DNA of 64,000 bases from a virus. Below the pieces are notes generated by a model, which worked only from the letters and a program-made list of their open reading frames with translations, did not search any database and was not told where the DNA came from. The DNA lies in the IMG/VR virus record IMGVR_UViG_3300037847_007805, positions 1 through 64,000 of that record; one strand, given 5' to 3'. A program made the position numbers and the translations under genes. This document shows, piece by piece, positions 7,972-51,371 of this stretch (positions are counted from its first letter, which is position 1; every line of letters starts with the position of its first letter).

Positions 7972-9162
7972 ATGAAACAATTACTCTATTTTGGAGATTT
8001 TGATTGTACGACAGGATTTGGAAATGTATCAAAAGAATTAATAAGTCATTTTTCTAAGGAAAATCTTTTTATAACAGTATTTGCCACTAACAACCATTCT
8101 AAAGAACCATATAATTTTTCTGAAAACGTATATGTTATTCCTGCCCTAAAAACAAGAGATGGTGATGACGATGATTTATATGCAAGAAAATCTTTTCTTA
8201 AATTAATCTACAACGGAAATTACGATTTAGTTTTTTGCTTGAATGATTTAGAAGTGATAAATGAACTCACTAAACACCTAAAAGAGGTAAAGTTTGCAAA
8301 ATCAAAAGCAAATAAAAAATCTTTTAAAACAGTATTTTATTTTCCTATTGACAGCCCTATACGAAAAAAAGATTTAGATATTTTATCTTTCGTTGATGTA
8401 TCTGCTACTTATACAGATTATGCAAAACAAGAAGTAAAAAATCACTTAGGATTTAGCAACAGTTTTAAAAAGTTAAAAGTAATTCCTCACGGAGTTAGTT
8501 CAACTTTTAAAAAGAATGGAATGTATATAAATAAAAATTTTACTTTCGGAAGCGTTAATAGAAACTCTGTAAGAAAAGATTTTGGAACTTTAATTTATGC
8601 TTTTAGTTTGTTAAAAAAGAAAAAAGAATATCAGGATTCAGTTTTGAAATTACATTGTAATCCTCTCGACCCTTTTGGTTTGAACCTATATCGTTTATGT
8701 CAAAGGCTTGAACTCGAAATTGATAAAGATGTTTATTTTCCTGAAGATTTTAACGAAAATAAAGGGTTTTCCGAAGAAGAACTCAATAAATTTTATAATT
8801 CTTTAGATTGTTTTATAACAACTACTACTGCTGAAGGTTGGGGGCTAACTGTTCACGAAGCAATGGCTTGTGAAACTTTAGTAATATGTCCCATGCACAC
8901 CTCTTTACAAGAAATAACTAATCAAGGAGAAGCTGTTATACCAATTTGGGATAATTCACCAACAGTTTTTAAAGATGACTTTGAAAAAATAAGATATGTT
9001 TCAAATGCCTATGAGGTTGAAGAAGCGATGATAGAAGCTATTAACATGACACCTTCGGTTAGGGCAAAAAAAATTTTAGACGCAAAAAAAATTGCATCTA
9101 AATATAATTGGAAAAAGACAGCCGAAATGTTTTATGGACTAATTCAAAGACAAATCGGCTAA
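7972..9162 (+). CDS. glycosyltransferase family 4 (GT-B)
   Basis: TGFGNVS, VIPHGV, NRNSVRKD, EGWGLTVHEAMAC. Confidence 0.9.
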   Translation: MKQLLYFGDFDCTTGFGNVSKELISHFSKENLFITVFATNNHSKEPYNFSENVYVIPALKTRDGDDDDLYARKSFLKLIYNGNYDLVFCLNDLEVINELTKHLKEVKFAKSKANKKSFKTVFYFPIDSPIRKKDLDILSFVDVSATYTDYAKQEVKNHLGFSNSFKKLKVIPHGVSSTFKKNGMYINKNFTFGSVNRNSVRKDFGTLIYAFSLLKKKKEYQDSVLKLHCNPLDPFGLNLYRLCQRLELEIDKDVYFPEDFNENKGFSEEELNKFYNSLDCFITTTTAEGWGLTVHEAMACETLVICPMHTSLQEITNQGEAVIPIWDNSPTVFKDDFEKIRYVSNAYEVEEAMIEAINMTPSVRAKKILDAKKIASKYNWKKTAEMFYGLIQRQIG

Positions 9163-9424: not shown

Positions 9425-9520
9425 ATTCACAAAGAAATATATCTTTTTTATTTTTAAAAATAATAATTTTTTTTTCTTTGCTTTTCACCTGTAGAATATA
9501 TATTTTTGTTAGTTATAATT

Positions 9521-12500: not shown

Positions 12501-13240
12501 ATATAAGATTTGAAAAAGGTGGTCGTACAATTAAAATTGTAAATGACGGAGTAAAGTTTGATAAGTCAAAATATAAAGCAGTTTATGGAGATTTTGATAA
12601 AGATGGTACTGTAAACATTGACGATGCTAACCCACTTGATGCAAAAAAATCAGGCAAGGTCGAACAAGTCGAACTTAAAGATACTTTTGACAAGCTATTA
12701 GGGGTTAAAGCTGAACTTGATGATATTATGTACGATGCTGTTGATACACTTGATGAAAAAGCACCATCTGATGCCGATATATATGCAAGAACTAAAACAC
12801 CGTACTCAATTCTCAAAAAACTTGTAGAAAAAAGAATGTTAGACCGTGAAAAAGGACTTACAGATATGATAGGAACAACCATTGCTGTAAAAAATCAAAA
12901 AGAACTCGAGCAAGTTAGAGATGATATTGACAATGGATTATTGGGTAAAATTTTAGACAGAGATGATTACTATAAATCTCCAAAAGCGGGATATAAGGCT
13001 TATCATTACATTGTAGATTATAAAGGTGTACCTGTTGAGGTTCAGTTAAAAACAAAAACTCAAAAGAAACTTCATGAAGCAAGTCATGATTTATATAAAA
13101 AAGGAAAATTAAATCCTTCTGAATTAAATAAAATGTCTGATTTATTTGAACAAGCTGATAGAGGAAACGCTAAAGCTAAAGCACAGGTAAATAAATTAGT
13201 AAAAAATAAAAAACAACTAACAAAAAAGATTTCTAAATGA
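9521..13240 (+). CDS. polyvalent protein: N-terminal G-H-GG/E-EGGE module, ADP-ribosyltransferase-like domain, Ca-binding-like repeat, C-terminal RelA/SpoT-type nucleotidyltransferase
   Basis: GKRHSEGG...IEMEGGEVVI; VRTQQFKTFFGDW...PLAVFHG...YFA...FLDIKNP...YDGYI...AFESRQIK; GDFDKDGTVNIDD; RTKTPYSILKK...DMIG...GYKAYH...VEVQLKT. Confidence 0.8.
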   Translation: MKRIDFYETYYKNLSPSTFEVKKTDEKIEITGFKNKYPKNFTVKDVKQFPVKQQSMQSYEKGGQTNFNPDGVMKDKVVHSSGNAGGMLVGKRHSEGGIKAINKSTGQPIEMEGGEVVITRNAVSDNKKRSFNGKMMTNRQILSEINQSGGGVSFADGGEIPDNVKFDCNAQYEYGGKTMCGKDLAKKMAKGGAVDDDMSELTSAVQQMNEMMQEGGEVETISEENYEVQVLYTTKDFYKKFVTINLKEVNIKNGFIKSFTPFTLGEAFFKSLDNSYQDLKLDSEFDFSLKDASEEYRINVTKQDIENFISSLKAFQGVLKEIVANDDTYIQKIDTKIERLRIDGQPYEGAEGYEESILENLEGYGNFNSTYIIRPEGSTNPYDWFPISSLEGRSNLDYFDFKNSLYFTDPTKEPLNFITVYPVIGNQNFPLIDSNKPFGVATNFEELGKVVYDLRNATKFQEVRYALYLNSQAEKYDFINNNFCLDIDVLKNKDVLILTLRKRRSSRGLAVADFKGNPAGYFLYRTKRIFQNPNKFLYLYKTVNLYKDGNKIQTFYKTSKLNVYGWTNFSLGLDTSKSEKEKIKLLKNTQKIRSKFIKKYQTSSIVPMILKDETAIDKTIKFEGFDFASQGKKGSMAYKIFPRNEKAFNFAKEVGLIEADAEIQTLMAKDLSSPIKSYDKIIQSLSKELKIQRPLLTNDEIALYQRKITNLIFNQRKLQQKLNEQIPLIDRVKNSLQTKFGDINKKYPATKLMSINGKKSELTKQEYELVRTQQFKTFFGDWETAYETGDYNGCSKIINQETKEPLAVFHGSDTLFAEFQTYETNKLHYFAKKREMANFFATSWKERADKSALDSEAIKQLNPMKGEFIYRCFLDIKNPIDFSRFGIDQRPIKDYLKFLEINYDIRGFDFLITGSKYGKSFLDKKVPAWLIIRTWQDFNSYINNFTQYDGYIFYESIPEKSPKTMANASLSFCAFESRQIKLADSNNFNALVEDIRFEKGGRTIKIVNDGVKFDKSKYKAVYGDFDKDGTVNIDDANPLDAKKSGKVEQVELKDTFDKLLGVKAELDDIMYDAVDTLDEKAPSDADIYARTKTPYSILKKLVEKRMLDREKGLTDMIGTTIAVKNQKELEQVRDDIDNGLLGKILDRDDYYKSPKAGYKAYHYIVDYKGVPVEVQLKTKTQKKLHEASHDLYKKGKLNPSELNKMSDLFEQADRGNAKAKAQVNKLVKNKKQLTKKISK

Positions 13241-20800: not shown

Positions 20801-22004
20801 ACCAAATAAATTCGCTAAAGGTGGGGAGATTGATGGATTTACTATGAGCATGGTCAAATCAAGTGGAGATGTTACAAAAGTTGAAACCGAAGATGCTAAA
20901 ATCAAAATGGCTAAAGGTGGTATAGTAAAAAACCAAGATGAAAACCATTTATTGCGAACTGCAATAGGTTATTCAATAAGTAAAGGTAATCTTGATAAAG
21001 AAGATAGAAAAAAATTAACTGAAATATACAATAGGTTAGTTAGTTCAAAATTTCATTATGCTAAAGGTGGTAAAGTTGATGACTTAGGAAACCCAACAGA
21101 CCCAAAAGTCATTTCACAAATGGAAAAATTTATAAAAGAAAAAATGCCTAAATTGGATAAGGATAGATTTTTTACAGATGGAATGAAAAGAAAAGAAGCA
21201 AAAAGAATGTTCTATGAAAAATATGGTTATGGTGCTTATAACCCAAGGTTTTCAATTTTTGAAAAAGGTGGAAGGACAATGTATGATGCACCACCAAGTA
21301 AAATAGGTAAAGTGAAATTTTCTTTAGCAAAGGGTAGAGATTTTGACATAATTGTTCCTGAAGGTAAATTCAGGATTTTACGAATCCCCCCTTTTGATTT
21401 ACCAACAGAAGTTGTCGATATGAATAAAGGAAAAAATTTCCAAAAAACTCCCGTAAATGATAGTAAAATTGCTCAAAAATATCAAAAAGAAATTCAAGAG
21501 TATTTAAATATGGATAGTACAAGATTTGAAAAAGGTGGTAAAATAGGATTTGAAGCATTGTCAAAAAAAGTTGCTAAAAGATATGTTGGCAAAAAAGTTC
21601 CTAAAAAATTCCAAAATCAATATGGTAAAACATATAGTCCTGCCGAAGCAAAAGAAGTTGGAGATAAAGTAGCAGGTGCAGTATACAGAATGCAACAGGC
21701 TAAAAAAATGGCTAAAGGTGGTAAAACACAAGGGTACAATGATAAACTTGATGAAAGTTTAGGAAACACCAAAGGGAAGCGTTCTACTAAAGAGCAAAAC
21801 TATAAAGACCGCAGAAATGAATCCGAAGCAATGGAGAAAAAGGGCGGTAAAAGAAAGTATGCCCGTGTGAAAACAATGGATAAAGGTTCAAGAAAAAAGA
21901 AGCCAAATAGCTTTTTTGCTGTTGTAAAAAGAAAGCAGAAAAAAGGAGAGGCTTGGCAAGATGCTATTCAAAGAGTAAAAAAAGAAATGAAAATGAATAA
22001 ATAA
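17889..22004 (+). CDS. giant modular protein punctuated by [MFYL]xxGG motifs (putative core/cargo polyprotein)
   Basis: about 19 motif copies separating short modules; basic termini; internal duplications. Confidence 0.8.
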   Translation: MSAKAKYESLDRSKLDKGVLKLLDVMKKKTDNFENKEVVKASKVEGALDKLIAKYPDAVKKSKPKAKAKPKAKAKAKAKSTGSPKKETVMTVAKRIRKDGEKWQDALKRAKAEMGKETKKSKSAVESEMDKLKKLIAEDSVLKGFQKSDLQRDSVRKAKPRGKRKSTTKGETTNQYGTFKNKVGRPYWESRENRSDRYAPKYPANKPFLEDGGVIVGGSTVLRNNADIMDLGIANSDAVFKHGGAIHKMRKEKDIDIYEEQMKHGGKTHGSDCGCKTCMEKGGMVEYAILEDYDGNDIEKMKFPKPIIESEVVEPMGYSLADIEEDEDGVLYARFQQDDEFAKGGRMKQGYNDRLDESLGMRDGVEPMMMQSYKDRRDESKGMEKAMGRRAYQSVGTMDKMGHGGMMQGYNDRLDESLGMRDGVEPMMMQSYKDRRDESKGMEKAMGRRAYQSVGTMDKMGMGGYLLAGGTGAYLGAKYPDKVKKVTDPLDKAVEDINRNLRNRYEDGGLVVGGSTVLRDNGDIMPLGTANADAVFQTGGVTAQTVVNPNEAMADLQSTYGFDDVYAKGGKIKIRNGKVVKTDIIHEKESLGLPFRIVYSKFLRANDISESSLSLADSLELETIALNEWEKSNKTYAKGGYIVEWYENDQNNFEYFDSNELNEAKDFYKFIKDEKFYYEKPKVVLTSRSDGEVLMGKKFAKGGKIDVSNYKINYFETESDRDSGESQQFDSFETDYDAFINDARRLYKRDGMEAVEVLNEKGETVVIFDNDTPDGEFYMTKPSKKSSKLEVGEFQVGKRVGFINTPHDERVGEIVGEEQNGKYPVKLKSKIHQGFEDRKGEPKLIKRENLIRLYSRWDEREELEKKFDSEMKRISPKQIDRIKKEYEKYEDMLSPKRDNPEFQEFFVRESQKISMAKGGKIDNMIGKKVKVDFRKEVGKIINIENDDVTVFYPELGFSEVLDAKAVEIVFLPNKFAKGGEIDGFTMSMVKSSGDVTKVETEDAKIKMAKGGIVKNQDENHLLRTAIGYSISKGNLDKEDRKKLTEIYNRLVSSKFHYAKGGKVDDLGNPTDPKVISQMEKFIKEKMPKLDKDRFFTDGMKRKEAKRMFYEKYGYGAYNPRFSIFEKGGRTMYDAPPSKIGKVKFSLAKGRDFDIIVPEGKFRILRIPPFDLPTEVVDMNKGKNFQKTPVNDSKIAQKYQKEIQEYLNMDSTRFEKGGKIGFEALSKKVAKRYVGKKVPKKFQNQYGKTYSPAEAKEVGDKVAGAVYRMQQAKKMAKGGKTQGYNDKLDESLGNTKGKRSTKEQNYKDRRNESEAMEKKGGKRKYARVKTMDKGSRKKKPNSFFAVVKRKQKKGEAWQDAIQRVKKEMKMNK
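18933..19270 (+). repeat. 177-bp tandem duplication encoding QGYNDRLDESLG...GTMDK
   Basis: near-identical DNA copies starting at 18933 and 19110; diverged third copy at ~21729. Confidence 0.9.
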
Positions 22005-24984: not shown

Positions 24985-25277
24985 TGGGTTACAGAATTAC
25001 AGATTATACAAAACAACAAGCTAAAAAACTTGGTGTTGAAGTAAAGCCTTCTAAAACGAAAGGTAAAAAAATAGATGTCTTTAAAAAAGGCAAAAAAGTT
25101 GCTTCTGTAGGTGCTATAGGATATAAAGATTTTCCTACTTACTCAAAACTTGAAAAAAAAGGTATATATGAAAAAGGGTATGCTAATAAAAGAAGGAAAC
25201 TTTACAAAATAAGACACAAAAAAGACAGGAATGTTAAAGGTAGTGCAGGTTACTACGCAGATAAATTATTATGGTAA
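24984..25277 (+). CDS. basic protein, Tlr6F/DUF5754-like
   Basis: ITDYTKQQAKKLGV...GAIGYKDFPTY...RRKLYKIRH...SAGYYADKLLW. Confidence 0.7.
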   Translation: MGYRITDYTKQQAKKLGVEVKPSKTKGKKIDVFKKGKKVASVGAIGYKDFPTYSKLEKKGIYEKGYANKRRKLYKIRHKKDRNVKGSAGYYADKLLW

Positions 25278-25642
25278 ATCTATCAAATACAGTTCCACCA
25301 CTAATTCACAAGTGGTCAAAAGCTATCAGCTTGATGAATCCAAAATTAATGGCGGATTTTTATTGTGAAAACGCTGTCTTAGTAGGCACTTACAGTCAGC
25401 CTTATGAAATCGGCAAAAAACAAATTTTAAAATACTTTGAAGATTTTTTGAATAATGATAGTATGACTTGTGTTATTAACGAGCAAACTTGTCAAAAAAT
25501 AGGAAATTTATGTGTTTCAAGTGGAGTTTACACTTTTACAATAAATGGAGAAAGTATTGAAGCGAGATTTAGTTTTGTTTGTATTCCAAGAAACGGTCAA
25601 ATGAAAATTTTAAACCATCATTCGTCTGTTTATGAAAGATAG
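25271..25642 (+). CDS. NTF2/SnoaL-fold protein, COG4875 (iota-carbonic anhydrase-like)
   Basis: FYCENAVLVGT...YFEDFL...SGVYTF...ARFSFV...KILNHHSS. Confidence 0.7.
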   Translation: MVNLSNTVPPLIHKWSKAISLMNPKLMADFYCENAVLVGTYSQPYEIGKKQILKYFEDFLNNDSMTCVINEQTCQKIGNLCVSSGVYTFTINGESIEARFSFVCIPRNGQMKILNHHSSVYER

Positions 25643-40052: not shown

Positions 40053-43000
40053 ATGAGCATTCAGGTATCTTTAGCCAACGATATTAAAGTCGTTCAGGGC
40101 AATGGTTTAGCTATCTTTTTAGATAGTGATACAAACCTTTTAACCCTGAAAGATACTAATGGGTGTGTTCAAGCCCTCGACAGTTATATATTACAAGAGG
40201 GGATTACTGAAATTATAGCGGGTTGTTGTATAACAGGTGGTGGCACATCTGCAATAGTTACAATTAATCACGCAGACACTTCTTCATTAGATGGCGATTA
40301 TGGTGCTACAGGTTCTCAAAATGGCTGTTACATCAAATCTGTTACAGTTGATGGTCTTGGACATTTAACAGGTGTAACAAGTGCTAATTTTGATACAAGA
40401 TATTTAGGAATTTGTGCTTGTGCTTGTGATTCAGCTTCGTTAAACGCTTTAGACCCTGATTACTATTTAAACTTTTGTAATTTTTTCAATGTCCCACCAT
40501 TAGGAGATATAACTGATGTTGTTGCAGGAGATGGTTTAGGCGGTGGTGGTTGTTGTGGTTGTATTACTTTATGTAACACAGATAAAGGTTCAGACCAAGC
40601 AATTATAAAAAGAATTGCAGATAATTCTTCAACAGTATTTACAGCTTCCACCAATAATGATTTGTTTTGTATTGTTGGAACAGGGGCTATAAGCACATCT
40701 ATAAGTGGAGATACTTTAACAATATCTTCTTCAACTGTTGCTAATAATTGTCAAATTGAGGTTTCGGCAGGTACAGGTTTAAGTGGTGGTGGCTGTTTTA
40801 ACTTAAATCAAAGTTCTAATTGTACACTTACTATTAATAACTGCGATAGAGGTTCACAGCAAAATATATTTAAAAACATTGCTGTATCAGGACAAAATAC
40901 AATTATTGCAGGTTCAAATACAGCCACATTAACTTTAGTTGAGGGTGCTAACATTGATATTACTACTTGTACTACTGATGGTTCGGTAACAATAAGCAGT
41001 ACACAGTCAGCCCCAAATAATTGTCAAATACAAATTACAGGCGGAGATGGGCTTGGGGGAAGTGCAACCTTTACTTTAAATCAAGCAACAAATGGTAGTT
41101 TCTCACTTTGTAATACAGACAAAGGTTCTGACCAATGCTTTTTTCAAAACATTGCGGTTGTTGGTTCATGCACGATAACAGCAGACAGTAATGCCGACAC
41201 CGTTTGTTTATCAGCAGGAACAGGAATTACTCTAACCTCTGACAGTTCTCAAGATTTAATTACGATAGGTACTACAGCTACAGGCTGTACAGGAACAGTA
41301 ACCGAAGTATGTGTACAAAGTGGCACAACAGGTTCTGATTTTAATGTTTCGGGTAGCCCGATTACAACTTCAGGAACAATTACTTTAAACTTGCCCATAG
41401 CAAGTGCGACCAAAACAGGTAAATTATCATGCACAGATTGGGCAACATTTAATAGTAAAACGTCATGCACAGGAACAGTAACAAGCGTAGGGTTCTGCAC
41501 AGCAGAAGGGGGAACAGATGTCAATGTATCAGGAAGTCCGATAACGTCAAGCGGGGACATAACATTGAACATACCGATTGCAAGTGCAACAAAAACAGGT
41601 AAATTATCATCAACTGATTGGAGTGATTTTGATGCAAAAGTAGATGATGTAACAGCAGGTTCAGGTATTGCGGTAAGTGGAACTGATACTATTGAAGTAA
41701 CAAATACTGACAAAGGTTCAGACCAATGTATATTTAAAACATTTGCAGTTTCAGGACAAAATGATATTGTAGCTGATTCAAATAGCGACACGCTTACTTT
41801 TGCAGGTTCAGGTATTGCAATTACAACTGATGATGCTACAGACACCATTACATTCACCGTTACTGATGCAGGTGGTACGGTTACAGAGATTTGTGGTGCA
41901 GTAGGAACAACGGGAACAGATTTTAATGTTTCAGGAAGTCCAATCACGACAAGTGGAACTCTAACCTTTAACCTTCCTGATGCGAGTGCAACCTCAAGAG
42001 GTGCATTAACAAGTACAGATTGGAGTACATTTAATTCTAAAACAACTTGCACGGGTACAGTAACAAGTGTCCAAATTGGTGGGGGAGAAGGAATTGTAGC
42101 CACAGGAACTAATCCTGTTACAACAAGTGGTACTATAAATCTTGCAGTTTGCCTTAATGAATTAACAACAACAACAGATAATGATTGCGGTTGTTATTTT
42201 GCTGTAGTAGATTCTTCAGGTGTACAAAGTAAACTTTGTAAATCAAACATAAATAATTCAGGATTCAACAATGATGCGGGATATACAACCTGTACAGGAA
42301 CTGTATCGAGTGTAGGATTGTCAGCAGGAACAGGAATATCTGTTTCAGGAAGCCCCGTTACGGGAAGCGGAACTATGACGGTTACAAATACTGACCGTGG
42401 TTCTTCTCAATGCATTTTTAAATGTGTGGCTGTTTCAGGACAAACAACAATAGAAGCTGATAGCAATGCCGATACATTAACCTTTGCAGAGGGAACGGGT
42501 ATTACTATAACAACTGATGATTCAACAGATACTATTACGATTTCAAATGAAGGTGCAGACGGAACAGTTACTTGTATAAATTTTGCTACAGATGAATCGG
42601 GTACTAATGTAGGGGTGTCAGGTGTTCCGATTACAACAAGCGGAACAATAACTTTATCTATACCTGAAGCAAGTGCTACTTCTACAGGTAAACTTACTGC
42701 AACTGATTGGAGTACATTCAACTCTAAAACCACTTGTACGGGTACTGTAACAAGTGTTGGTCTTACAACGGGAACAACAGGGACAGATGTAAATGTTTCA
42801 GGAAGCCCCGTTACAGGAAGTGGTAATATAACTTTAAATATACCTACTGCAAGTGCTACAAAGAGAGGTGCATTATCCTCTACTGATTGGAGTACATTTA
42901 ACTCCAAAACTACTTGTACAGGTACAGTAACAAGCGTGGGTCTTGCTACTGATGAAACGGGAACAGACGTAGCTGTATCGGGAAGCCCTGTAACGGGAAG

Positions 43001-46000
43001 TGGAGATATAACGCTTTCTATTCCTGTGGCAAGTGCAACTAAAACAGGTAAATTATCAAATACAGATTGGACTACATTTAATTCTAAAACAACCTGTACA
43101 GGAACTGTAACAAGTGTTTCAGGCGGGGCAGGTTTAACGGGAACTGTAACAACTTCAGGCTCTATTTGTGTTGATTATGCAGGTGCAGATAATATAATTT
43201 TAGCAAGTCCTTGTACAGCTACAGGCACATTAGATGTCGATGACTTTATTATGATAAATAATTGTAACACAAATAATGTTACAAAATCAGCTATATCTAA
43301 TTTACCTTTCTCAAATTGTTCAGGAACTGTTACAAGCGTAGGTTTAACCACAGGAACAACAGGTACTGATGTAAATGTATCGGGAAGTCCTGTAACGGGT
43401 AGTGGGGACATTACCTTAAATATACCCGATGCAAGTGCAACCTCAAGGGGTGCTTTAACAAGTACAGATTGGTCTACATTTAATTCAAAAACGACTTGTG
43501 TTGGTACGGTTACAAGCGTAGGTATTACAAGTGGTGGTGGATTAAGTGTTTCAGGTAGCCCTATAACTACAAATGGAGATATAACTGTTACAAATACAGA
43601 TAAAGGTTCTGACCAATGCATATTCAAAACTTTTGCAGTTTCAGGTCAAGATGATATTGTAGCCGATTCTAATAGTGATACTGTTACTTTTGCAGGTTCA
43701 GGTATTGCGATTACAACCGATAATACTACAGATACAATAACATTTACAGTTACCGATGCAGGTGGTACGGTTACAGAGATTTGTGGTGCGGTTGGAACTT
43801 CAGGAAGTGATTTTAACGTAACAGGAAGTCCAATAACGACAAGCGGAACTCTAACCTTTAACCTTCCGACAGCGAGTGCAACAAAACGAGGTGCTTTATC
43901 AAGTTCAGATTGGACTTCATTTAATTCTAAAGTAGACGATGTAACCGCAGGTGCAGGTATAAGTGTAACAGGTTCGGGTACTAAAACCGTTACAAATACA
44001 ACCTGCATATTTAAAAATATAGCTTCAACAGGTCAATCCACTTTAGTTGCAGACAGCTTGACTGATACGGTAAATATAGAATCAGGAACAGGGATTTCTA
44101 TAACTACAGATGATACTACTGACACCTTAACTATAGCAAACACACTTAGTGTATCTGATTGTACAATCTGTATTCAAGCAGGTTCAGGTCTTGGTGGTGG
44201 TGGAGATTTTACCTTAAATCAAAGTTCAGGTGAAACTGTAACTTTAACAAATGCTGACAAGGGTTCTTCCCAATGCATTTTCAAAAATATAGCTGTTTCA
44301 GGTCAAAACACAATTTCAGCAGACAGCAATGCCGACACACTTACTTTTGCAGGTTCGGGTATAGCAATTACAACTGATGATAGTACAGACACGGTTACGT
44401 TTACAGTAACAGATGCAGGTGGTACAGTAACCTGTATAAATGCAGTTGCTTGTAATACAGGTTCAGATATTTCTGTTACAGGAGTTCCAATTACCACAAG
44501 TGGAGAAATATGTATTAACATACCGACAGCAAGTGCAACTAAACGAGGTGCTTTATCATCTACAGATTGGTCTACATTCAATAGCAAAACAGATTGTACG
44601 GGTACAGTTACAAGCGTATCGGGTGGAGTAGGTCTTACAGGAACAGTAACAAGTTCAGGAAATATAAATGTAGATTACTTAGGTACAGACAATATAATTT
44701 TATCAGCTACAAATTGTGAAGGTGCTTCAGCTTCTTCAGGATTTACATTACTATTAAATGATGATTCCACTTGTAATGTCGGAAGATATGAATTAAGTGA
44801 TTTACCATTTTCAAATTGTGGTGGAACTGTTACAAGCGTAGGTTTAACAACTAACGAATCAGGAACAGATGTTTCAGTATCGAACAGTCCAATTACAAGT
44901 AGCGGGGATATTACCCTATCAATACCGATTGCAAATGCGACCAAAACAGGTAAATTATCTAATACAGATTGGAGTACATTTAACGCAAAAACTACTTGTG
45001 TTGGAACAGTAACAAGTGTAGGAATTACAAGTGGCGGGGGCTTAAGTGTATCAGGTAGTCCGATTACAACAAACGGTGATATAACCGTAACAAATACAGA
45101 TAAAGGGTCTGACCAATGTATATTTAAAAATATAATAGTTTCGGGTCAAGACACTATATCTGCCGAAATAAATGATGATAGCTTAACCCTTATTGCGGGT
45201 ACAAATATGTCTATCTCAACAAATTGCACTTTAGATTCAATAACCTTTGCTTCGACAGGAACAACTTGCACAGGAACAGTTACAAGTGTTGGGCTTACAG
45301 CAGGTACAGGAATATCTGTTTCAGGAAGTCCAATTACAAGTAGTGGCTCTATTACAGTTTGTAATACTGATAAAGGTTCAGACCAATGCATATTTAAAAC
45401 TTTTGCGGTTTCAGGTCAAGATGATATTGTTGCTGATTCAAATAGTGATACTCTTACTTTGGTAGGTTCAGGAATTGCAATCACAACTGATGACACAACC
45501 GATACAATTACTTTTACTGTAACTGATGCAGGTGGAACTGTAACTTGTGTTTGTACTACAGCACCTTTAACAGGGGGTAATTTTTCTACTACGGGTACAA
45601 TAGGTATTACCGAAGCAGATTCAACAACAGATGGTTATTTATCATCTACAGATTGGAATACATTTAACGATAAAACCGATTGTACAGGAACTGTTACAAG
45701 CGTTGGACTTACAGCAGGTTCAGGTATTTCTGTTTCAGGAAGCCCTATAACAGGAAGTGGGTCTATAACTGTTACGAACTCTGACAAAGGTTCTGACCAA
45801 TGTATGTTTAAGTGTATTGCTGTAGCGGGACAAGATACTATTGTAGCTGATAGTAACACCGATACTCTTACAGTTGTCGGTGGAAATAATATATCAGTTT
45901 TAACAAATGCCACAAGTGATACTCTAACTATTTGTACTATATCTACATCATGCACAGGTACTGTTACGAGTGTTGGTCTTTGTACGGGTACTGCGGGTTC

Positions 46001-49000
46001 AGATGTAAATGTTACAGGCACACCTGTTACAAGTAGTGGTAACATAACTTTAAATGTTCCAACAGCGAGTGCAACGAAACGAGGTGCTTTATCTTCTACA
46101 GATTGGTCTACTTTTAATAGTAAAACTGATTGTGTAGGAACTGTTACAAGTGTAGGTTTAACAGCAGGTACGGGAATATCTGTATCAGGAAGCCCTGTAA
46201 CAAGTAGTGGCTCAATAACTGTATGTAATACTGACAAAGGTTCTTCGCAATGTATTTTCAAATCTATCGCAGTATCAGGACAAAATACTATTACAGCAGA
46301 TAGCAATGCCGACACACTTACATTTGCAGGTTCAGGTATAGCTATTACGACTGACGATAGTACCGATACTGTAACATTTACAGTAACTGATGCGGGTGGA
46401 ACTGTTACAGAGGTTTGTGCAGTTACAGGAACATCGGGTACAGATTTTAATATAGGTGGAAGTCCAATTACTACAAACGGAACTCTAACCTTCAATCTCC
46501 CTGTTGCTTCGGCTTCAGCTACAGGTAAATTATCTTCAACTGATTGGAATACATTTAATAATAAAACTGATTGCACGGGAACGGTTACAAGCGTTTCAGG
46601 TAGCAATGGATTATGTGGAAGTGTTACAACTTCAGGAAGTATTTGTGTAGATTATGCAGGAGTTGATAACATAATTTTATCAGCAACAGACGTAACGGGT
46701 AATACTATAGGTTCAACCGATAAATTACTTATTTCTTGTCAAACTAATGGTAATGTTGGTTATTATTGTGTATCTGATTTACCATTTTCAAATTGTACAG
46801 GTACTGTTACAAGTGTAGGATTAACAGCAGGTTCGGGTATTTCCGTTTCAGGTAGCCCTATAACGGGTAGTGGCTCAATGACTGTTACTAACTCTGATAG
46901 AGGTTCTTCTCAATGTATCTTTAAAACTTTTGCTGTATCAGGACAAAACGATATTGTAGCTGATTCAAATAGCGACACAGTAACTTTAGTAGGTTCAGGT
47001 ATTGCAATAACTACAGACGATTCTACAGATACAATAACATTTACTGTTACAGATGCAGGGGGTACGGTAACAAGTGTAGGATTGTGTACAGGAACTACAG
47101 GTACAGATATAAATGTTTCAAATACACCTATTACTACAAGTGGTAATATAACTTTAAACGTACCAACCGCAAGTGCATCAAATCGTGGTGCTTTATCAAG
47201 TACAGATTGGAGTACATTTAACGACAAACTTGATGATGTTACCGCAGGTGTAGGTATATCCATTTCAGGTTCAGGAAATAAAACTATATGCAATAGTGAT
47301 AGAGGTTCTGCACAATGTATATTTAAAAAGGTGGCAGTTTCAGGACAAGCTACAATTCAAGCTGACACAAATGATGACACGCTTACTTTTGCAGAAGGTA
47401 CAGGCATTACAATTACAACAAATGATACAACCGATACTGTTACGATAAGTAGTTCAATCGTTGGTGATATTACTTGCGTGGGTGCAGGTGCAGGACTAAC
47501 GGGTGGGGGTAGCACAGGTGATGTAACATTATGCGTAGATTATGGTAGTACAGGTCTGATTGCAGATGCAACTTGTGTTGGTTCAGTAAGTAGTTCAGAT
47601 TTCTTATTAGTAGGTTTAGCCGATAGTAGTTCAGGAGAAACAAGAAAAATTGAAATAGTTGATTTCTTCTCTTGTGTCGGTGGAGATATAACAGGAGTAA
47701 CAGGCTCGGGTGGACTATGTGGTGGTGGAACTTCAGGTGCTGTAACTGTTTGTGTAGATTATGAGGGTGCTGACAACATTATTTGTACAGCTTCTTCATG
47801 TGAAGGCACAGCTATAGGAACAGGTGATGCAATAATTGTTAATGAAGATGCATCAGATTGTGTTAGACGACATTTAGTAAGTGATTTACCATTTTCAAAT
47901 TGTACAGGTACTGTTACAAGTGTAGGTTTGACCGCAGGTTCAGGAATTTCGGTTTCAGGAAGTCCAATAACGGGTAGTGGTTCAATGACTGTTACTAACT
48001 CTGACAGGGGTTCTTCACAATGTATTTTCAAAACTATAGCCGTATCAGGTCAAAGTGATATAGTCGCAGATACAAATAGCGATACTTTAACATTTGCAGA
48101 GGGAACTAATGTTACAATAACCACAAACGCTACAAGTGATACTCTTACTATTTCTTCATCTGCAACAACTTGTACAGGAACTGTAACAAGTGTAGGTCTT
48201 ACAACGGGTACAACAGGGACAGATGTAAATGTTTCAGGAAGTCCAATTACAGGAAGTGGTGATATTACTTTAAATATACCTACTGCAAGTGCATCAAATC
48301 GTGGTGCTTTATCATCTACAGATTGGTCTACATTCAATGATAAAACTGATTGCTTAGGAACTGTTACAAGTGTAGGTTTAACAGCAGGTACGGGAATATC
48401 AGTTTCAGGAAGCCCTATTACAAGTAGCGGGTCAATGACTGTTACGAACTCTGATAGAGGTTCTTCACAATGCATATTTAAAACGATTGCTGTTTCAGGA
48501 CAAAGTGATATTGTAGCAGATACAAATAGTGATACACTTACATTTGTTGGTTCGGGTGTTACAATTACTACAGATGCATCAACCGATACAGTTACTTTCA
48601 CAGCTACACAGGGAGATATTACAGGTGTTACAGGAACAAGTGGTCTTTGCGGTGGTGGAACAGTAGGAGATGTTTCAGTATGTGTAGATTATGCAGGTAC
48701 AGATAACATTATTGCTTGTTCCCCTTGTACAGCAACGGGTACACTTTCTACAAGTGATTGTATTATGATTAGTAACAATGCTACTAACAATGTTACTAAA
48801 GCAACAATAGGTTTATTACCATTCTCAAATTGTCAAGGTGATATAACAAACGTAACAGCTACTTGTGGATTGTGTGGCGGTGGTGCTTCAGGTAGTGTAT
48901 CAGTTTGTGTTGATTATTGTGGAAGTGATAATATAATTTTAGCCTCACCATATCCTGCGTTTGTAATCAATTCAAGTGATAAAATTCTTACTACAAACAC

Positions 49001-51371
49001 TTCTAATTGTTGTGTTTATCAAACAGAATTATCCTGTTTACCTTTTTCAAATTGTTCAGGAACAGTTACAAGTGTTTCAGCGAATGCAGGGACAGGAATA
49101 AACATAACGGGAGATACAACAATTACAACAAGTGGTGCATTTACTGTTTGTAATACTGACAGAGGTTCTTCTCAATGTATTTTTAAAACCATAGCTGTTT
49201 CAGGACAAAGTGATATAGTAGCAGATACAAATAGTGATACACTAACTTTTGTTGGTTCAGGTGTTACAATCACTACTGATGCCTCTACTGATACGGTTAC
49301 ATTTACAGCAACGCAGGGAGATATAACAGGTGTAACAGGTTCAGGCGGTCTTTGTGGTGGTGGCACAAGTGGTGCAGTTACAGTTTGTGCTGATTATGAA
49401 GGAAGCGATAATATAATTTTAGCTACTCCATCTTGTTCAGGTGGTACTGTTAGTTTAAGTGATAAAATCATTACAACAAGCACTTCGGGTTCTCAGGCAG
49501 TTTGTCAAACACCTTTATCGGATTTACCTTTTACTAATTGTTCAGGAGATATTACTTGTGTAGGTACAGGTGCAGGACTAACGGGTGGGGGTAGCACAGG
49601 TGCTGTAACTGTTTGTGTTGATTATTTAGGTTCAGATTCAGTAGTAATGTCTGCACCTTCAGGAACAGGAACTATAGCACCTGATGATTTCTTACTTATT
49701 GGTAGAGATAGTTCAGAATCAGGAAATTCTGATAGATTCCCAATAGAAGATGTGCCATTAAGTTGTTTTTGCAATGATAGTGGATTTACAAGCTGTACGG
49801 GAGATATTAATACTGTAGGTGCAGGTGCAGGACTAACAGGTGGTGGTGCTTCAGGTAGTGTTGCACTTTGTGTTGATTATGCAGGTACTGATAACATTAT
49901 TGCTTGTTCCCCTTGTACAGCAACGGGTACACTTTCTACAAGTGATTGCATAATGATTAGTAATAATGCTACTAACAATGTTACTAAGGCATCAATAAGT
50001 TTATTACCTTTTACTAATTGTTCAGGAGATATTACTTGTGTAGGTACAGGTGCAGGATTAACAGGTGGTGGTACTTCAGGAAATGTTACGGTTTGTGTAG
50101 ATTATAGTTCTTCGGGTCTTATTGCAGATGCACCTATAGGTAGTGGTTCACCTGATTCAGATGATTACGTCTTAATTGGTAAAGATTCCACAGGTAGTGG
50201 TGAAACTGTTTCTTATCAGCTTACAGATTTGCCATTCAATCAAACCAATGCAACAGTTTGTTGCGTAAATCTTGTAAATGGGGGTGGAATGACAATTTCA
50301 GGAAGTCCAATAACAACAAGTGGTTCTATAAGTTTAACAAATTCTGACCGTGGTTCAAATCAATGTATATTTAAGAATATAGCTGTTTCAGGACAAAGTA
50401 CCATAGTTGCAGATTCAAACAATGACACTCTTACTTTTGCAGGTGGAACAAATGTTACTATAACTACAGATGCCTCAACGGACACAGTAACAATAAGTGC
50501 AAATGATTCTTGCACAGGGGACGTTAGTAGATGTGGAAGCATCACTTGTAACGATATAGCTTTATGGTGTAATAATACGGGGATTTATTCTTGTAATTGT
50601 TTTACTTATTGCCCTACAACTTGTTCATTATTTGTTCATGGTGGAAGCGGTGGTGTTTTTGCTACTCCTGATAAAAACTGTCCATCTTATTCTTTTATTG
50701 GTGATACAGACACAGGTGTTGTAAATTCAGGTGGAAGTGCTAATCAAGTTGGTTTCATGACAGGGAGTAAAAATGCACTAACTGTTACAAGTGGACAACA
50801 GCTAAAACTTGATTGCTATTGTGCAACTATGACAAGTTCATTAGGTTGTTCTATAGACCCTGACCAACAAAACTACTATCCGTGTAATGGCACAATAGCA
50901 GAAATAGGAGTAGATAGATGCGGAAATGTTGCAAGAGGATTTCAAGAAGCAACATGGAAATTTACACTTGCTCAATTAAATGCAGGGTTTGGTGGAAGTG
51001 GTCAAACACTTTTACAATCAGCAGGTGCAGGAAAATTTGTGGTGATTCAGGAATCTACCTTTATGGGTGAATTTAATGCTGATTTTAGTAGTGCAAATAA
51101 TAATATAGAAATAAGACAAGGAAATCAAAATAATTCAAATGCAACCGTTTCAATTTTACCCGCAACTCAACTTAACTTAATGGCTACTAATATAGCTACA
51201 AATGGAAACTTTGGTATTTATAGTAGAAATGTACCTCAAGTTGGAAGGATATTCAAAGCTAATACACCTACTACAATACACTTAGTTAATAGTAATAACT
51301 TTCCATCAGGTCTTACAGCAGTATATATAAAATTAAGATATAGGGTTTATGACCAAACAAATTACATATAA
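40053..51371 (+). CDS. giant Thr/Gly/Ser/Cys-rich repetitive fibre/spike protein (3772 aa)
   Basis: recurring GTVTSV, GSPITTSG, GALSSTDWSTFNSK, GSSQCIFK.IAVSGQ..I.AD.N.DTLT, CVDY...DNII modules; globular C-terminal domain. Confidence 0.85.
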   Translation: MSIQVSLANDIKVVQGNGLAIFLDSDTNLLTLKDTNGCVQALDSYILQEGITEIIAGCCITGGGTSAIVTINHADTSSLDGDYGATGSQNGCYIKSVTVDGLGHLTGVTSANFDTRYLGICACACDSASLNALDPDYYLNFCNFFNVPPLGDITDVVAGDGLGGGGCCGCITLCNTDKGSDQAIIKRIADNSSTVFTASTNNDLFCIVGTGAISTSISGDTLTISSSTVANNCQIEVSAGTGLSGGGCFNLNQSSNCTLTINNCDRGSQQNIFKNIAVSGQNTIIAGSNTATLTLVEGANIDITTCTTDGSVTISSTQSAPNNCQIQITGGDGLGGSATFTLNQATNGSFSLCNTDKGSDQCFFQNIAVVGSCTITADSNADTVCLSAGTGITLTSDSSQDLITIGTTATGCTGTVTEVCVQSGTTGSDFNVSGSPITTSGTITLNLPIASATKTGKLSCTDWATFNSKTSCTGTVTSVGFCTAEGGTDVNVSGSPITSSGDITLNIPIASATKTGKLSSTDWSDFDAKVDDVTAGSGIAVSGTDTIEVTNTDKGSDQCIFKTFAVSGQNDIVADSNSDTLTFAGSGIAITTDDATDTITFTVTDAGGTVTEICGAVGTTGTDFNVSGSPITTSGTLTFNLPDASATSRGALTSTDWSTFNSKTTCTGTVTSVQIGGGEGIVATGTNPVTTSGTINLAVCLNELTTTTDNDCGCYFAVVDSSGVQSKLCKSNINNSGFNNDAGYTTCTGTVSSVGLSAGTGISVSGSPVTGSGTMTVTNTDRGSSQCIFKCVAVSGQTTIEADSNADTLTFAEGTGITITTDDSTDTITISNEGADGTVTCINFATDESGTNVGVSGVPITTSGTITLSIPEASATSTGKLTATDWSTFNSKTTCTGTVTSVGLTTGTTGTDVNVSGSPVTGSGNITLNIPTASATKRGALSSTDWSTFNSKTTCTGTVTSVGLATDETGTDVAVSGSPVTGSGDITLSIPVASATKTGKLSNTDWTTFNSKTTCTGTVTSVSGGAGLTGTVTTSGSICVDYAGADNIILASPCTATGTLDVDDFIMINNCNTNNVTKSAISNLPFSNCSGTVTSVGLTTGTTGTDVNVSGSPVTGSGDITLNIPDASATSRGALTSTDWSTFNSKTTCVGTVTSVGITSGGGLSVSGSPITTNGDITVTNTDKGSDQCIFKTFAVSGQDDIVADSNSDTVTFAGSGIAITTDNTTDTITFTVTDAGGTVTEICGAVGTSGSDFNVTGSPITTSGTLTFNLPTASATKRGALSSSDWTSFNSKVDDVTAGAGISVTGSGTKTVTNTTCIFKNIASTGQSTLVADSLTDTVNIESGTGISITTDDTTDTLTIANTLSVSDCTICIQAGSGLGGGGDFTLNQSSGETVTLTNADKGSSQCIFKNIAVSGQNTISADSNADTLTFAGSGIAITTDDSTDTVTFTVTDAGGTVTCINAVACNTGSDISVTGVPITTSGEICINIPTASATKRGALSSTDWSTFNSKTDCTGTVTSVSGGVGLTGTVTSSGNINVDYLGTDNIILSATNCEGASASSGFTLLLNDDSTCNVGRYELSDLPFSNCGGTVTSVGLTTNESGTDVSVSNSPITSSGDITLSIPIANATKTGKLSNTDWSTFNAKTTCVGTVTSVGITSGGGLSVSGSPITTNGDITVTNTDKGSDQCIFKNIIVSGQDTISAEINDDSLTLIAGTNMSISTNCTLDSITFASTGTTCTGTVTSVGLTAGTGISVSGSPITSSGSITVCNTDKGSDQCIFKTFAVSGQDDIVADSNSDTLTLVGSGIAITTDDTTDTITFTVTDAGGTVTCVCTTAPLTGGNFSTTGTIGITEADSTTDGYLSSTDWNTFNDKTDCTGTVTSVGLTAGSGISVSGSPITGSGSITVTNSDKGSDQCMFKCIAVAGQDTIVADSNTDTLTVVGGNNISVLTNATSDTLTICTISTSCTGTVTSVGLCTGTAGSDVNVTGTPVTSSGNITLNVPTASATKRGALSSTDWSTFNSKTDCVGTVTSVGLTAGTGISVSGSPVTSSGSITVCNTDKGSSQCIFKSIAVSGQNTITADSNADTLTFAGSGIAITTDDSTDTVTFTVTDAGGTVTEVCAVTGTSGTDFNIGGSPITTNGTLTFNLPVASASATGKLSSTDWNTFNNKTDCTGTVTSVSGSNGLCGSVTTSGSICVDYAGVDNIILSATDVTGNTIGSTDKLLISCQTNGNVGYYCVSDLPFSNCTGTVTSVGLTAGSGISVSGSPITGSGSMTVTNSDRGSSQCIFKTFAVSGQNDIVADSNSDTVTLVGSGIAITTDDSTDTITFTVTDAGGTVTSVGLCTGTTGTDINVSNTPITTSGNITLNVPTASASNRGALSSTDWSTFNDKLDDVTAGVGISISGSGNKTICNSDRGSAQCIFKKVAVSGQATIQADTNDDTLTFAEGTGITITTNDTTDTVTISSSIVGDITCVGAGAGLTGGGSTGDVTLCVDYGSTGLIADATCVGSVSSSDFLLVGLADSSSGETRKIEIVDFFSCVGGDITGVTGSGGLCGGGTSGAVTVCVDYEGADNIICTASSCEGTAIGTGDAIIVNEDASDCVRRHLVSDLPFSNCTGTVTSVGLTAGSGISVSGSPITGSGSMTVTNSDRGSSQCIFKTIAVSGQSDIVADTNSDTLTFAEGTNVTITTNATSDTLTISSSATTCTGTVTSVGLTTGTTGTDVNVSGSPITGSGDITLNIPTASASNRGALSSTDWSTFNDKTDCLGTVTSVGLTAGTGISVSGSPITSSGSMTVTNSDRGSSQCIFKTIAVSGQSDIVADTNSDTLTFVGSGVTITTDASTDTVTFTATQGDITGVTGTSGLCGGGTVGDVSVCVDYAGTDNIIACSPCTATGTLSTSDCIMISNNATNNVTKATIGLLPFSNCQGDITNVTATCGLCGGGASGSVSVCVDYCGSDNIILASPYPAFVINSSDKILTTNTSNCCVYQTELSCLPFSNCSGTVTSVSANAGTGINITGDTTITTSGAFTVCNTDRGSSQCIFKTIAVSGQSDIVADTNSDTLTFVGSGVTITTDASTDTVTFTATQGDITGVTGSGGLCGGGTSGAVTVCADYEGSDNIILATPSCSGGTVSLSDKIITTSTSGSQAVCQTPLSDLPFTNCSGDITCVGTGAGLTGGGSTGAVTVCVDYLGSDSVVMSAPSGTGTIAPDDFLLIGRDSSESGNSDRFPIEDVPLSCFCNDSGFTSCTGDINTVGAGAGLTGGGASGSVALCVDYAGTDNIIACSPCTATGTLSTSDCIMISNNATNNVTKASISLLPFTNCSGDITCVGTGAGLTGGGTSGNVTVCVDYSSSGLIADAPIGSGSPDSDDYVLIGKDSTGSGETVSYQLTDLPFNQTNATVCCVNLVNGGGMTISGSPITTSGSISLTNSDRGSNQCIFKNIAVSGQSTIVADSNNDTLTFAGGTNVTITTDASTDTVTISANDSCTGDVSRCGSITCNDIALWCNNTGIYSCNCFTYCPTTCSLFVHGGSGGVFATPDKNCPSYSFIGDTDTGVVNSGGSANQVGFMTGSKNALTVTSGQQLKLDCYCATMTSSLGCSIDPDQQNYYPCNGTIAEIGVDRCGNVARGFQEATWKFTLAQLNAGFGGSGQTLLQSAGAGKFVVIQESTFMGEFNADFSSANNNIEIRQGNQNNSNATVSILPATQLNLMATNIATNGNFGIYSRNVPQVGRIFKANTPTTIHLVNSNNFPSGLTAVYIKLRYRVYDQTNYI

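Follow-up and report, generated by a model that had tools for sequence, protein, structure and literature searches.

Why would a phage stud the shaft of a tail fibre with cysteines? Tail fibres decide which cells a phage attaches to and how long its virions survive, and the question is raised by a 64,000-nucleotide stretch of viral DNA (positions 1 to 64,000 of record IMGVR_UViG_3300037847_007805, hereafter the window), in which a single open reading frame (ORF) encodes a fibre of 3772 amino acids (aa). The source record is a 79,409-base IMG/VR virus that CheckV rates as 100% complete; the G+C content of the window is ~30% overall, versus up to 37-39% in its 40-50 kb region. An earlier note on this DNA had called the Cys of the fibre selected, and our comparisons agree with it, since the trait is lineage-specific, has arisen in an otherwise Cys-free repeat architecture and recurs in an unrelated one. 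That a high Cys load is a selected property of fibres adjoining a gene for a transferase with the fold of glycosyltransferase family 9 (GT9) is well supported by the sequence comparisons set out below, which also bear on what the thiols may be for.

Cysteines in a giant repeat fibre

The fibre is composed largely of Thr (17.7%), Ser (12.9%) and Gly (12.5%), and contains 152 Cys (4.03%), at the lower end of the 4-6% previously estimated by eye. These are encoded by 121 TGT and 31 TGC codons. For the remaining 64 ORFs of the window, the total is 104 Cys among 14,879 aa (0.70%), and the roughly sixfold excess in the fibre is highly significant (binomial p ~5e-64). Details given in the earlier note were also accurate: there are exactly 17 Cys within the first 265 aa, and all the example motifs are present, including ICACACD at aa 120, GGCCGC at aa 165, GSQQNIFK once, GSSQCIFK seven times, GDITGV and GDITCV three times each, and VTCI and VTCV alongside 21 VTSV. 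The most C-terminal Cys is aa 3623, so that the final 149 aa have none (p = 0.002 at 4%), which matches the Cys-free C-terminal ~150 aa described there. Cys-Cys spacings of one to four residues occur 4, 8, 4 and 6 times, as in random placement, and by these counts CxxC-type motifs are not enriched in the fibre. The claim that there is no fixed disulfide spacing thus stands at short range, but the repeats introduce a long-range periodicity at 40 and 60 residues.

Elsewhere in the window, a 123-aa ORF at 25271-25642 (+) with five Cys (4.07%) is the only other one with fibre-like Cys content, and it has a homologue in a related locus (L232). Two giant ORFs on the + strand, at 9506-13240 (1244 aa) and 17889-22004 (1371 aa), contain 0.2-0.5% Cys and have almost no PHROG matches.

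From its sequence features, we assign the Cys-rich ORF as the long tail fibre of the phage, an uncultured marine one with a genome of about 79 kb. As expected of tail fibres in general, it combines a shared repeat shaft, an N-terminal anchor conserved in the group and two alternative C-termini. Orthologues are full-length, at 3777-4100 aa, in independent assemblies. The window fibre is referred to as P0001 and the proteins with the same N-terminus as P0002-P0012. Among the latter, P0003, P0004 and P0007-P0011 end in PF13884, the Peptidase_S74 fibre chaperone, several of them at 57-85% identity; P0003 and P0004 are 85% and 81% identical over 92% of the length. P0001 itself has no Pfam match and no PF13884 at its C-terminus, and a head like its own is found in P0002, P0005 and P0006. 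Since PF13884 is present in close orthologues, the shaft belongs to fibres of this type and the tip alone has been swapped in P0001. The head is 25-37% similar (BLAST) to the C-termini of fibres adjoining GT9-like genes in L238, L214, L228-L230 and L260, and the fibre shows a weak match to a PHROG tail-fibre connector (PHROG 677, E 2e-4). From its PF13884-bearing orthologues, it is probably trimeric. A megablast search with 25 kb gave no match among cultured phages; the low G+C content, together with pelagiphage and cyanophage relatives of the GT9-like enzyme, hints that the host is perhaps a marine oligotroph.

The shaft is a string of ~41 small β-rich modules of three types, with 16 A modules (GSxQ-C-IFK), 15 B modules (S-T-D-W-x-x-F-N-x-K ... 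C-x-G-T-V-T) and 10 C modules (C-VDY ... LPFSNC). Nine recurrent repeat-position classes hold 78 of the 152 Cys. Three of these positions are near-fixed and account for 52 Cys, namely the boundary C-x-G-[TD]-[VI]-T (27), Q-C-IFK (15 of the 16 A modules) and C-VDY (10, a count of 10/10 that is true by construction since this motif was the anchor for finding C modules), while six further positions account for 26. The other 74 are found in the first 460 aa (21), in the neck that precedes the head (13) and scattered over the shaft (40). The Cys had previously been read as substitutions of N, G, S or T in sibling repeats. This is a good description of the scattered half, but about half of all Cys sit at fixed repeat positions, and at Q-x-IFK the situation is the reverse of that described, Cys being the consensus and Asn the exception.

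Only a few columns of module A contain Cys, namely +4 and +8, where Asn stands elsewhere, -5 (Thr) and -30 (Ser), and it is absent from the most variable columns. At +4 of Q-x-IFK, where Cys is near-fixed, and also at +8, Asn has been exchanged for Cys, which takes two base changes (AAY to TGY). No mutational or decoding shortcut seems to have been available for this exchange, since there is neither a reverse transcriptase in the genome nor a tRNA in the window. A diversity-generating retroelement was considered and rejected, there being no reverse transcriptase (PF00078) in the whole 79,409-base record, and so was recoding by a phage tRNA, because none is encoded in the window and the other genes use Cys codons normally.

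The Cys at columns -30 (T-V-T-C-V) and +4 (Q-C-IFK) nearly exclude each other (p 7e-6). In 83 A modules from P0001, P0003, P0005, P0007, P0008 and P0010, two have both, 14 only the former, 50 only the latter and 17 neither. Examples of column -30 Cys in the window fibre are VTCI at aa 839 and 1459 and VTCV at aa 1830. Either each module takes a single Cys at one site or the other, or the exclusion stems from module subtype or lineage.

As for the fold of the shaft, no solved structure is related to the modules by sequence. An AlphaFold2 (AF2) monomer model of an A-B unit, built with 73 sequences, has a pLDDT of 72 and is mostly coil; its best Foldseek matches are trimeric autotransporter heads at E ~1, and a wide structure search gave no match. 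Such an extended monomer model fits an obligate oligomer.

Cysteine-poor relatives and the neighbouring transferase gene

Module A is present in 329 viral stretches, and its fibres elsewhere contain 0-0.4% Cys in 78 viral loci and 0-0.6% in 24 genome loci. In the 78 viral loci, the variable residue of Q-x-IFK is Asn in 88 cases, Ala in 11 and Ser in six, and Asn is also dominant in the genome loci. Likewise, the B-module boundary in other loci is occupied by Ala, Gly, Ser or Asn. As the earlier note had anticipated for Cys-poor homologues, both sets of loci lack the kinase and the GT9-like gene that lie downstream of the window fibre (BLAST and hidden Markov model searches). The module is also found in giant, almost Cys-free proteins (5931 and 6710 aa; L086, L088) encoded by the Candidatus Saccharibacteria chromosome OZ246395.1, and in other Patescibacteria and metagenome-assembled genomes (L083-L104). 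The repeat is therefore not phage-specific.

The fibres with the common N-terminus form a graded series, from 0.54% Cys in P0012, none of whose 14 Q-x-IFK motifs has Cys, via 2.1-3.0% in P0007-P0011, to 3.4-4.1% in P0001-P0006. When P0001 and P0007 are compared, 92 sites have Cys only in the former and 24 only in the latter. These alignments indicate a net gain of Cys, and identify it as a derived, lineage-specific trait in a repeat architecture that is Cys-free in all other contexts. The fibre is useful for further study, since the combination of modules that are Cys-free elsewhere with a graded series makes the gain of Cys traceable site by site.

The earlier note had also predicted that Cys richness co-varies with neighbouring modification genes. 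This proved true for the GT9-like transferase, but not for the cysC-like kinase alone. We compared loci anchored on either gene, these being fragments of at most 20 kb in which the absence of a gene means its absence within 10 kb. By arbitrary cut-offs, ORFs were called fibre-like when Thr+Ser+Gly was at least 30%, and Cys-rich when Cys was at least 1.9%; the minimum ORF length was 300 aa in the kinase- and GT9-anchored sets and 400 aa in the comparison sets. The kinase-anchored set consists of 79 loci, with the sister contig left out. In the 29 that also contain the GT9-like gene, 20 have a Cys-rich fibre (up to 6-7% Cys), three have only Cys-poor fibres and six have none in view. None of the 50 loci without the GT9-like gene has a Cys-rich fibre, while 10 have a Cys-poor one (Fisher 3e-6). 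The idea that the kinase supplies Cys for the fibre was rejected as the main link, since kinase-only loci are devoid of Cys-rich fibres and the kinase travels with sulfotransferases.

The GT9-anchored set gave a concordant picture. It consists of 80 of at least 551 viral stretches that contain the enzyme, retrieved with an alignment as query (a single-protein query matched the sister contig only). Cys-rich sequences make up 58 of its 111 distinct fibre-like ORFs (median 2.03% Cys), versus a median of 0.64% for the other 316 ORFs, and the ratio of Cys-rich to Cys-poor is 30:5 with the kinase and 14:16 without it. In the comparison sets, only four of the 112 fibre-like ORFs of module A viral loci are Cys-rich (p 1e-17 versus the GT9-anchored set), and none of the 31 from genome loci. 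When GT9-like enzymes are clustered, 18 of 21 clusters at 70% identity, and six of seven at 50%, have an adjoining Cys-rich fibre.

Most other Cys-rich fibres have a different architecture, consisting of a 17-residue NTAIG repeat. Among 77 NTAIG-anchored fibres the median Cys content is 0.24-0.38%; all four with the GT9-like gene are Cys-rich (1.9-4.9%), as are five of the 34 with none in view. The gene was not found in the contigs of these five loci, which are 3-20% complete. In Cys-rich NTAIG fibres, Cys occurs only at six hypervariable positions (6, 7, 10, 11, 16 and 17, at 6-16% each) and never at the eleven conserved ones. The number of Cys per repeat fits independence, and no pair of positions stands out as co-occurring, within or between neighbouring repeats. 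In the NTAIG family, we thus favour independent and probably outward-facing sites over paired disulfides, a view that we restrict to that family. Because most Cys-rich neighbours of GT9-like genes belong to one NTAIG/IGGG superfamily without similarity to the window shaft, the pairing holds in two unrelated fibre architectures and the trait is convergent in at least two.

The same is apparent among closer relatives of the phage. Eleven GT9-anchored loci have 6-14 other genes in common with the window, and the fibre regions in view there, of quite different sequence, are all Cys-enriched, from 1.6% (L201) to 5.3%. A metagenome scan with the N-terminal anchor yielded eight loci, mostly close relatives on short contigs. 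One distant relative, L356, combines an anchor of the P0001 type with visibly Cys-rich shafts of the IGGG type in two tandem fibres, followed by a sulfotransferase-like gene, the kinase, a nucleotidyltransferase and the GT9-like gene. It follows that the fibre slot of this phage group is Cys-rich whatever shaft occupies it, while the A, B and C modules are Cys-free in all other contexts. The tandem genes of L356 (L356:11-3500) encode proteins of 595 and 560 aa in place of one giant fibre; the slot is therefore occupied in some cases by several short fibres and in others by a very long one.

At the level of single sites, the Cys of the window fibre turn over readily. Cys conservation closely follows overall identity between orthologues (0.89/0.89, 0.80/0.83, 0.85/0.82, 0.69/0.74 and 0.66/0.74), and in the closest pair gains and losses are about equal (19 and 16). 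Changes involving Cys represent ~8.7% (P0002) and 7.6% (P0005) of orthologue differences, versus the 7.5% expected for random non-synonymous changes. Because conservation is average and the proportion of changes near-neutral, individual sites look interchangeable while the total load is kept high. Measured against their share of the composition, the exchange partners of Cys are Asn (2.7x), Ser (1.6x), Thr (1.2x) and Gly (0.3x); Gly is under-represented although its change to Cys requires a single base. Base composition alone would give 2.6-3.2% Cys. The conserved Cys pairs that mark a disulfide-rich domain are missing. With Cys placed independently and conserved only as well as the average residue, classical paired disulfides are unlikely, in line with the earlier view that no regular pairs are formed.

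The kinase and transferase genes downstream of the fibre

The coordinates of the fibre regions and of the genes discussed here are collected in Table 1. The gene that follows the fibre encodes a P-loop kinase resembling adenosine 5'-phosphosulfate (APS) kinases. In addition to a PF01583 match well above the cut-off, it aligns with APS kinases of the PDB at E ~5e-7, and the alignment with 3CR7 keeps the P-loop, DGDxxR and S..R..NI. At 149 aa, the protein is short, and its score against the NCBIfam equivalog TIGR00455 falls below the cut-off (54 versus 138.7 bits). The context of its homologues, which are accompanied by sulfotransferases and a nucleotidyltransferase, suggests an APS-kinase function. 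Of 78 loci with a kinase homologue, 60 have a cytidylyltransferase-like HxGH gene (116-173 aa) directly downstream of it, and another 17 have one less than 2 kb away. Together, the two may be a compact phage module for the synthesis of 3'-phosphoadenosine 5'-phosphosulfate (PAPS), in which sulfate is activated by an enzyme of an unusual kind. The cytidylyltransferase-like gene of the window phage (L271:9036-9386, genome 72036-72386) is 20 kb from the kinase gene. It encodes a 116-aa protein, and genes for a sulfotransferase, a GT2 glycosyltransferase and a methyltransferase are likewise present outside the window. Kinase homologues (L107-L185) are often adjoined by a DUF2061 protein, a HAD-like protein or a sulfotransferase.

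As for the second gene, the AF2 model of its product (pLDDT 89, pTM 0.88) displays a GT-B fold with a plain two-lobe secondary structure. The best 14 or more Foldseek matches are all GT9 enzymes (E 2e-12 to 5e-8), such as 3TOV (2e-12), WaaF (2e-11), WaaC (~1e-9) and TibC (~1e-8), so that the structural model identifies the protein as a GT9-fold glycosyltransferase. Sequence similarity is limited. The Pfam family PF01075 is matched at 22.2 bits, versus a cut-off of 22, over residues 191-238 only, and three of 22 family members match it at E < 0.01. With hhalign, the probability for WaaC is 23% and the alignment covers the C-terminal donor motif only (IDSxLQHAAAAL, versus WaaC residues 249-301); the N-terminal half of the enzyme shows no detectable similarity to WaaC by this method.

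The 22 members of the family have an invariant GGLGK after strand 1. In WaaC, the N-terminal catalytic Asp is Asp13. The catalytic Asp of TibC is Asp110 (PMC4358343). A replacement of Asp by Lys in the phage family is a lead rather than a result, the N-terminal halves being unaligned by sequence. No Cys is invariant or near-invariant among the 22 members, which hence lack the four-Cys iron finger of the BAHT (TibC/AAH) subfamily.

Distant homologues of the GT9-like enzyme are encoded by three cultured phages, Pelagibacter phages HTVC111P and HTVC112P and Synechococcus phage Sf-FS3. In both pelagiphages the gene directly follows a tail-fibre gene, and the HTVC111P fibre, gp52 (followed by gp53), is of the NTAIG type with 1.47% Cys. 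The Sf-FS3 gene has neighbours annotated as phosphoheptose isomerase, PfkB kinase, cytidylyltransferase-like protein and epimerase, which point to the ADP-heptose pathway. The same phage has three tandem paralogous ORFs (SfFS3_97 to SfFS3_99, L270:7943-10356) of 260-269 aa, with 9-11% Cys and Gly-rich motifs. On one side of them is a gene for a 1481-aa protein; on the other is the GT9-like gene, in company with the ADP-heptose genes and several prolyl 4-hydroxylase genes.

Finally, a second, putative glycosyltransferase gene is found far upstream of the fibre. It matches phrog_2170, and homologues are present near the cassette in six kinase-anchored and three GT9-anchored loci.

Table 1. Features of the fibre, of the adjoining cassette and of a distant glycosyltransferase gene in the window
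Feature	Position	Strand	Basis
Giant tail-fibre gene, 3772 aa (assigned from sequence)	40053..51371	+	Single ORF and translation; 4.03% Cys; 43% Thr+Ser+Gly
N-terminal anchor, aa 1-46, also borne by Cys-rich fibres of related phages with other shafts	40053..40190	+	Aligns with fibre N-termini of L232, L356 and P0002-P0012
Cys-dense N-terminal region, aa 1-265	40053..40847	+	17 Cys including CC and CxCxC
Repeat shaft, 41 anchored modules	40848..50504	+	Module anchors, alignments, Cys by repeat position
Cys-dense neck, aa 3485-3623	50505..50921	+	14 Cys in 139 aa
Cys-free C-terminal head, aa 3624-3772, swappable tip	50922..51368	+	No Cys past aa 3623
APS-kinase-like P-loop kinase, 149 aa	51460..51909	+	PF01583 E 9e-15, 55.4 bits (cut-off 21.1)
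GT9-fold glycosyltransferase (predicted), 292 aa	51906..52784	+	Start overlaps kinase stop; AF2 and Foldseek
Second glycosyltransferase (putative), possible further member of the decoration pathway	7972..9162	+	phrog_2170 E 4e-39

Possible roles of the thiols and comparison with known systems

How might the Cys load and the downstream genes be connected? The earlier note had inferred exposed thiols for S-linked modification, metal binding or inter-fibre crosslinking, any of which may apply. The reading that we favour, tentatively, is that a selected Cys trait is coupled to the cassette, the GT9-like enzyme acting on the fibre with the thiols as acceptors or part of them. In this phage family, any shaft that enters the fibre slot would become studded with Cys, here at module boundaries, at the two formerly Asn sites of Q-N-IFK-N, at C-VDY and at many scattered sites where Ser, Thr and Asn are its exchange partners. 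The cassette would combine a GT9-fold transferase with a supply of activated sulfate (PAPS), provided by the APS-kinase-like gene together with the sulfotransferase and the small nucleotidyltransferase encoded elsewhere in the genome. We propose decoration of the fibre by analogy with TibC and AAH, which heptosylate adjacent repeat adhesins: the transferase would act in the host cytoplasm, as these enzymes do on TibA and AIDA-I, and we infer that its donor would be ADP-heptose. The Cys thiols would then be acceptors, part of the acceptors or part of the recognition site, and S-linked, possibly sulfated sugars would cap them and coat the shaft, the receptor-binding head staying free of Cys.

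Several points count against this proposal. Support for GT9 membership at the level of sequence (Pfam, hhalign) is weak. We know of no GT9 enzyme that makes S-linkages, and the only well-established bacterial enzymes that glycosylate Cys thiols, the S-glycosyltransferases of glycocins (SunS with sublancin, ThuS, GccA), belong to GT2 (GT-A fold) and act on one or two Cys of small peptides. They resemble the phage enzyme in the proposed thiol chemistry, but they are not GT9 and do not have a virion protein as substrate. With over 1100 Ser and Thr in the shaft, these residues might be the acceptors, or the enzyme might act on a molecule of the host envelope. The Cys of module A replace semi-conserved Asn, Thr and Ser and perhaps are structural or axis-facing, and the Cys-dense N-terminal region and neck look more like crosslinking or metal-binding regions. 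The association itself has exceptions, with only Cys-poor fibres beside the GT9-like gene in three kinase-anchored and 21 GT9-anchored loci, and a few Cys-rich fibres with no such gene in view. It also depends on an arbitrary 1.9% cut-off and on loci that are not phylogenetically independent, their kinship being roughly controlled by the clustering of enzymes.

The main rival, which we consider possible if somewhat unlikely, is that the Cys are crosslinkers. They would form inter-chain disulfides or cystine knots in oxic seawater, attach the N-terminus to the baseplate and stiffen a long thin fibre, while the GT9-like enzyme would separately O-glycosylate Ser and Thr; the two traits would co-occur because both harden the virion. 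The near-fixed Cys at every module boundary, those that replace conserved Asn perhaps near the axis, the CC and CxCxC motifs of the N-terminal region and the Cys-dense neck are all consistent with this. In a homotrimer, which the PF13884 trimer chaperone domain of close orthologues points to, one substitution would create three neighbouring thiols, and this would explain both unpaired spacing and easy gain and loss. There is also a precedent in cyanophage Pam3, whose fibres are disulfide-bonded to the wedge via N-terminal Cys and released by dithiothreitol (PMC9942802). However, crosslinking leaves unexplained the specific link of Cys richness with the GT9-like gene, as opposed to the kinase and sulfotransferase alone. 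Moreover, three thiols per layer cannot all pair, Cys conservation is only average, unlike that of structural disulfides, and the Cys of NTAIG fibres, confined to six probably outward positions, show neither rung-to-rung nor within-rung pairing. Crosslinking and decoration of the fibre are not mutually exclusive.

The remaining explanations are less likely. The cassette might modify the host envelope, or a phage glycan unrelated to the fibre, and be linked to Cys-rich fibres only through ecology or phylogeny (same phage groups, hosts and waters), which we regard as improbable. Characterised GT9 enzymes outside the BAHT group (WaaC, WaaF) all act on lipopolysaccharide, 50 loci have sets of kinase, nucleotidyltransferase and sulfotransferase genes but no Cys-rich fibre, and the region downstream of fibre genes is a common site for accessory genes. 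Yet the pairing spans 6-18 deep enzyme clusters and two unrelated fibre architectures, holds within the NTAIG set too and involves a gene that abuts or overlaps fibre genes, while the non-fibre ORFs of the same loci are not Cys-rich.

We give still less credence to metal binding, in which Fe, Zn or Cu along the fibre would be ligated by three symmetry-related thiolates per layer, and by the Cys of the neck and the N-terminus. In a trimer, a fixed module position with one Cys in each chain would become a Cys3 site, the neck is dense in Cys, and T4 fibre proteins and tips have metal-binding sites. Against this, typical His/Cys metal motifs are missing and CxxC is not enriched, sites turn over fast, the Cys need not lie on the axis and a link to a glycosyltransferase would have no reason. 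Least credible of all is that the Cys have no function and reflect relaxed selection, mutation pressure towards a neutral level and the spread of fixed Cys by duplication and gene conversion: base composition, the near-random proportion of Cys changes, the balanced gains and losses between close orthologues and the clear duplication of modules fit this idea, but the observed 4.0-4.2% is more than the estimate for neutrality, Cys stays at 0-0.4% in other virion-type ORFs of this phage, relatives of both repeat architectures are near zero, the trait is convergent and tracks one neighbouring gene, and Cys is confined to particular columns where it exchanges with Asn, Ser and Thr rather than with Gly, one step away.

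The proposal that the transferase decorates the fibre can be extended to a general one, which seems unlikely to us as a whole, namely that many phage lineages S-glycosylate Cys of their own fibres, with heptose or a similar, perhaps sulfated sugar, by means of a stripped-down GT9 enzyme, and that the fibres then evolve acceptor Cys at outward or boundary positions. If so, S-linked glycosylation would be without precedent for a virion protein, as would S-glycosylation by any GT-B or GT9 enzyme. With the sugar on Cys, virology would gain another protein-sugar linkage, and a much-studied enzyme family an activity not seen in it before. A full-text search found no literature on Cys-rich phage fibres with a heptosyltransferase, an APS kinase or S-glycosylation. 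A widespread, genetically defined system for decorating fibres would change the way in which marine phage sequences are interpreted in terms of host range and virion stability, and its signature is a simple one, Cys-studded repeats adjoining a small GT9-like gene.

Among known systems, the closest in gene arrangement are TibC and AAH with TibA and AIDA-I, where a gene for a heptosyltransferase-fold GT-B enzyme likewise lies beside one for a long β-rich repeat protein, and the phage enzyme has TibC among its highest-ranking structural matches. To our knowledge, the repeats of such autotransporters are not enriched in Cys. TibC heptosylates Ser in repeat adhesins encoded beside it, and is a dodecamer with an N-terminal β-barrel, a four-Cys iron finger and a β-hairpin thumb (PMC4358343; PDB 4RAP, 4RB4). 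In contrast, the phage enzyme is a bare 292-aa GT-B protein with no conserved Cys and an invariant N-terminal GGLGK, its candidate substrates are Cys-rich and its cassette adds PAPS synthesis and a sulfotransferase. TibC and AAH decorate their adhesins many times, and the phage enzyme is a candidate for such a role. The best structural matches of the phage enzyme are WaaC, WaaF and other GT9 proteins (PDB 2H1H, 6DFE, 1PSW, 3TOV; TM 0.56-0.70), and the C-terminal donor-binding motif of WaaC aligns with it. Unlike the proposed acceptor, that of WaaC and WaaF is lipid A-Kdo, not a protein, and the N-terminal halves have no detectable similarity.

As for the Cys themselves, the N-terminal Cys of the Pam3 fibre trimer bonds to Cys-rich loops of the baseplate wedge (PMC9942802). 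Pam3 thus has one Cys per chain at the base of its fibre, whereas the window fibre has 152 along the whole shaft. By analogy only and without homology, the fibre also resembles mucins, as it combines Thr/Ser-rich repeats and many Cys with glycosyltransferases and a sulfotransferase. Mucins are Ser/Thr-rich, O-glycosylated and sulfated, and concentrate their crosslinking Cys in dedicated domains, while those of the window fibre are spread through its repeats.

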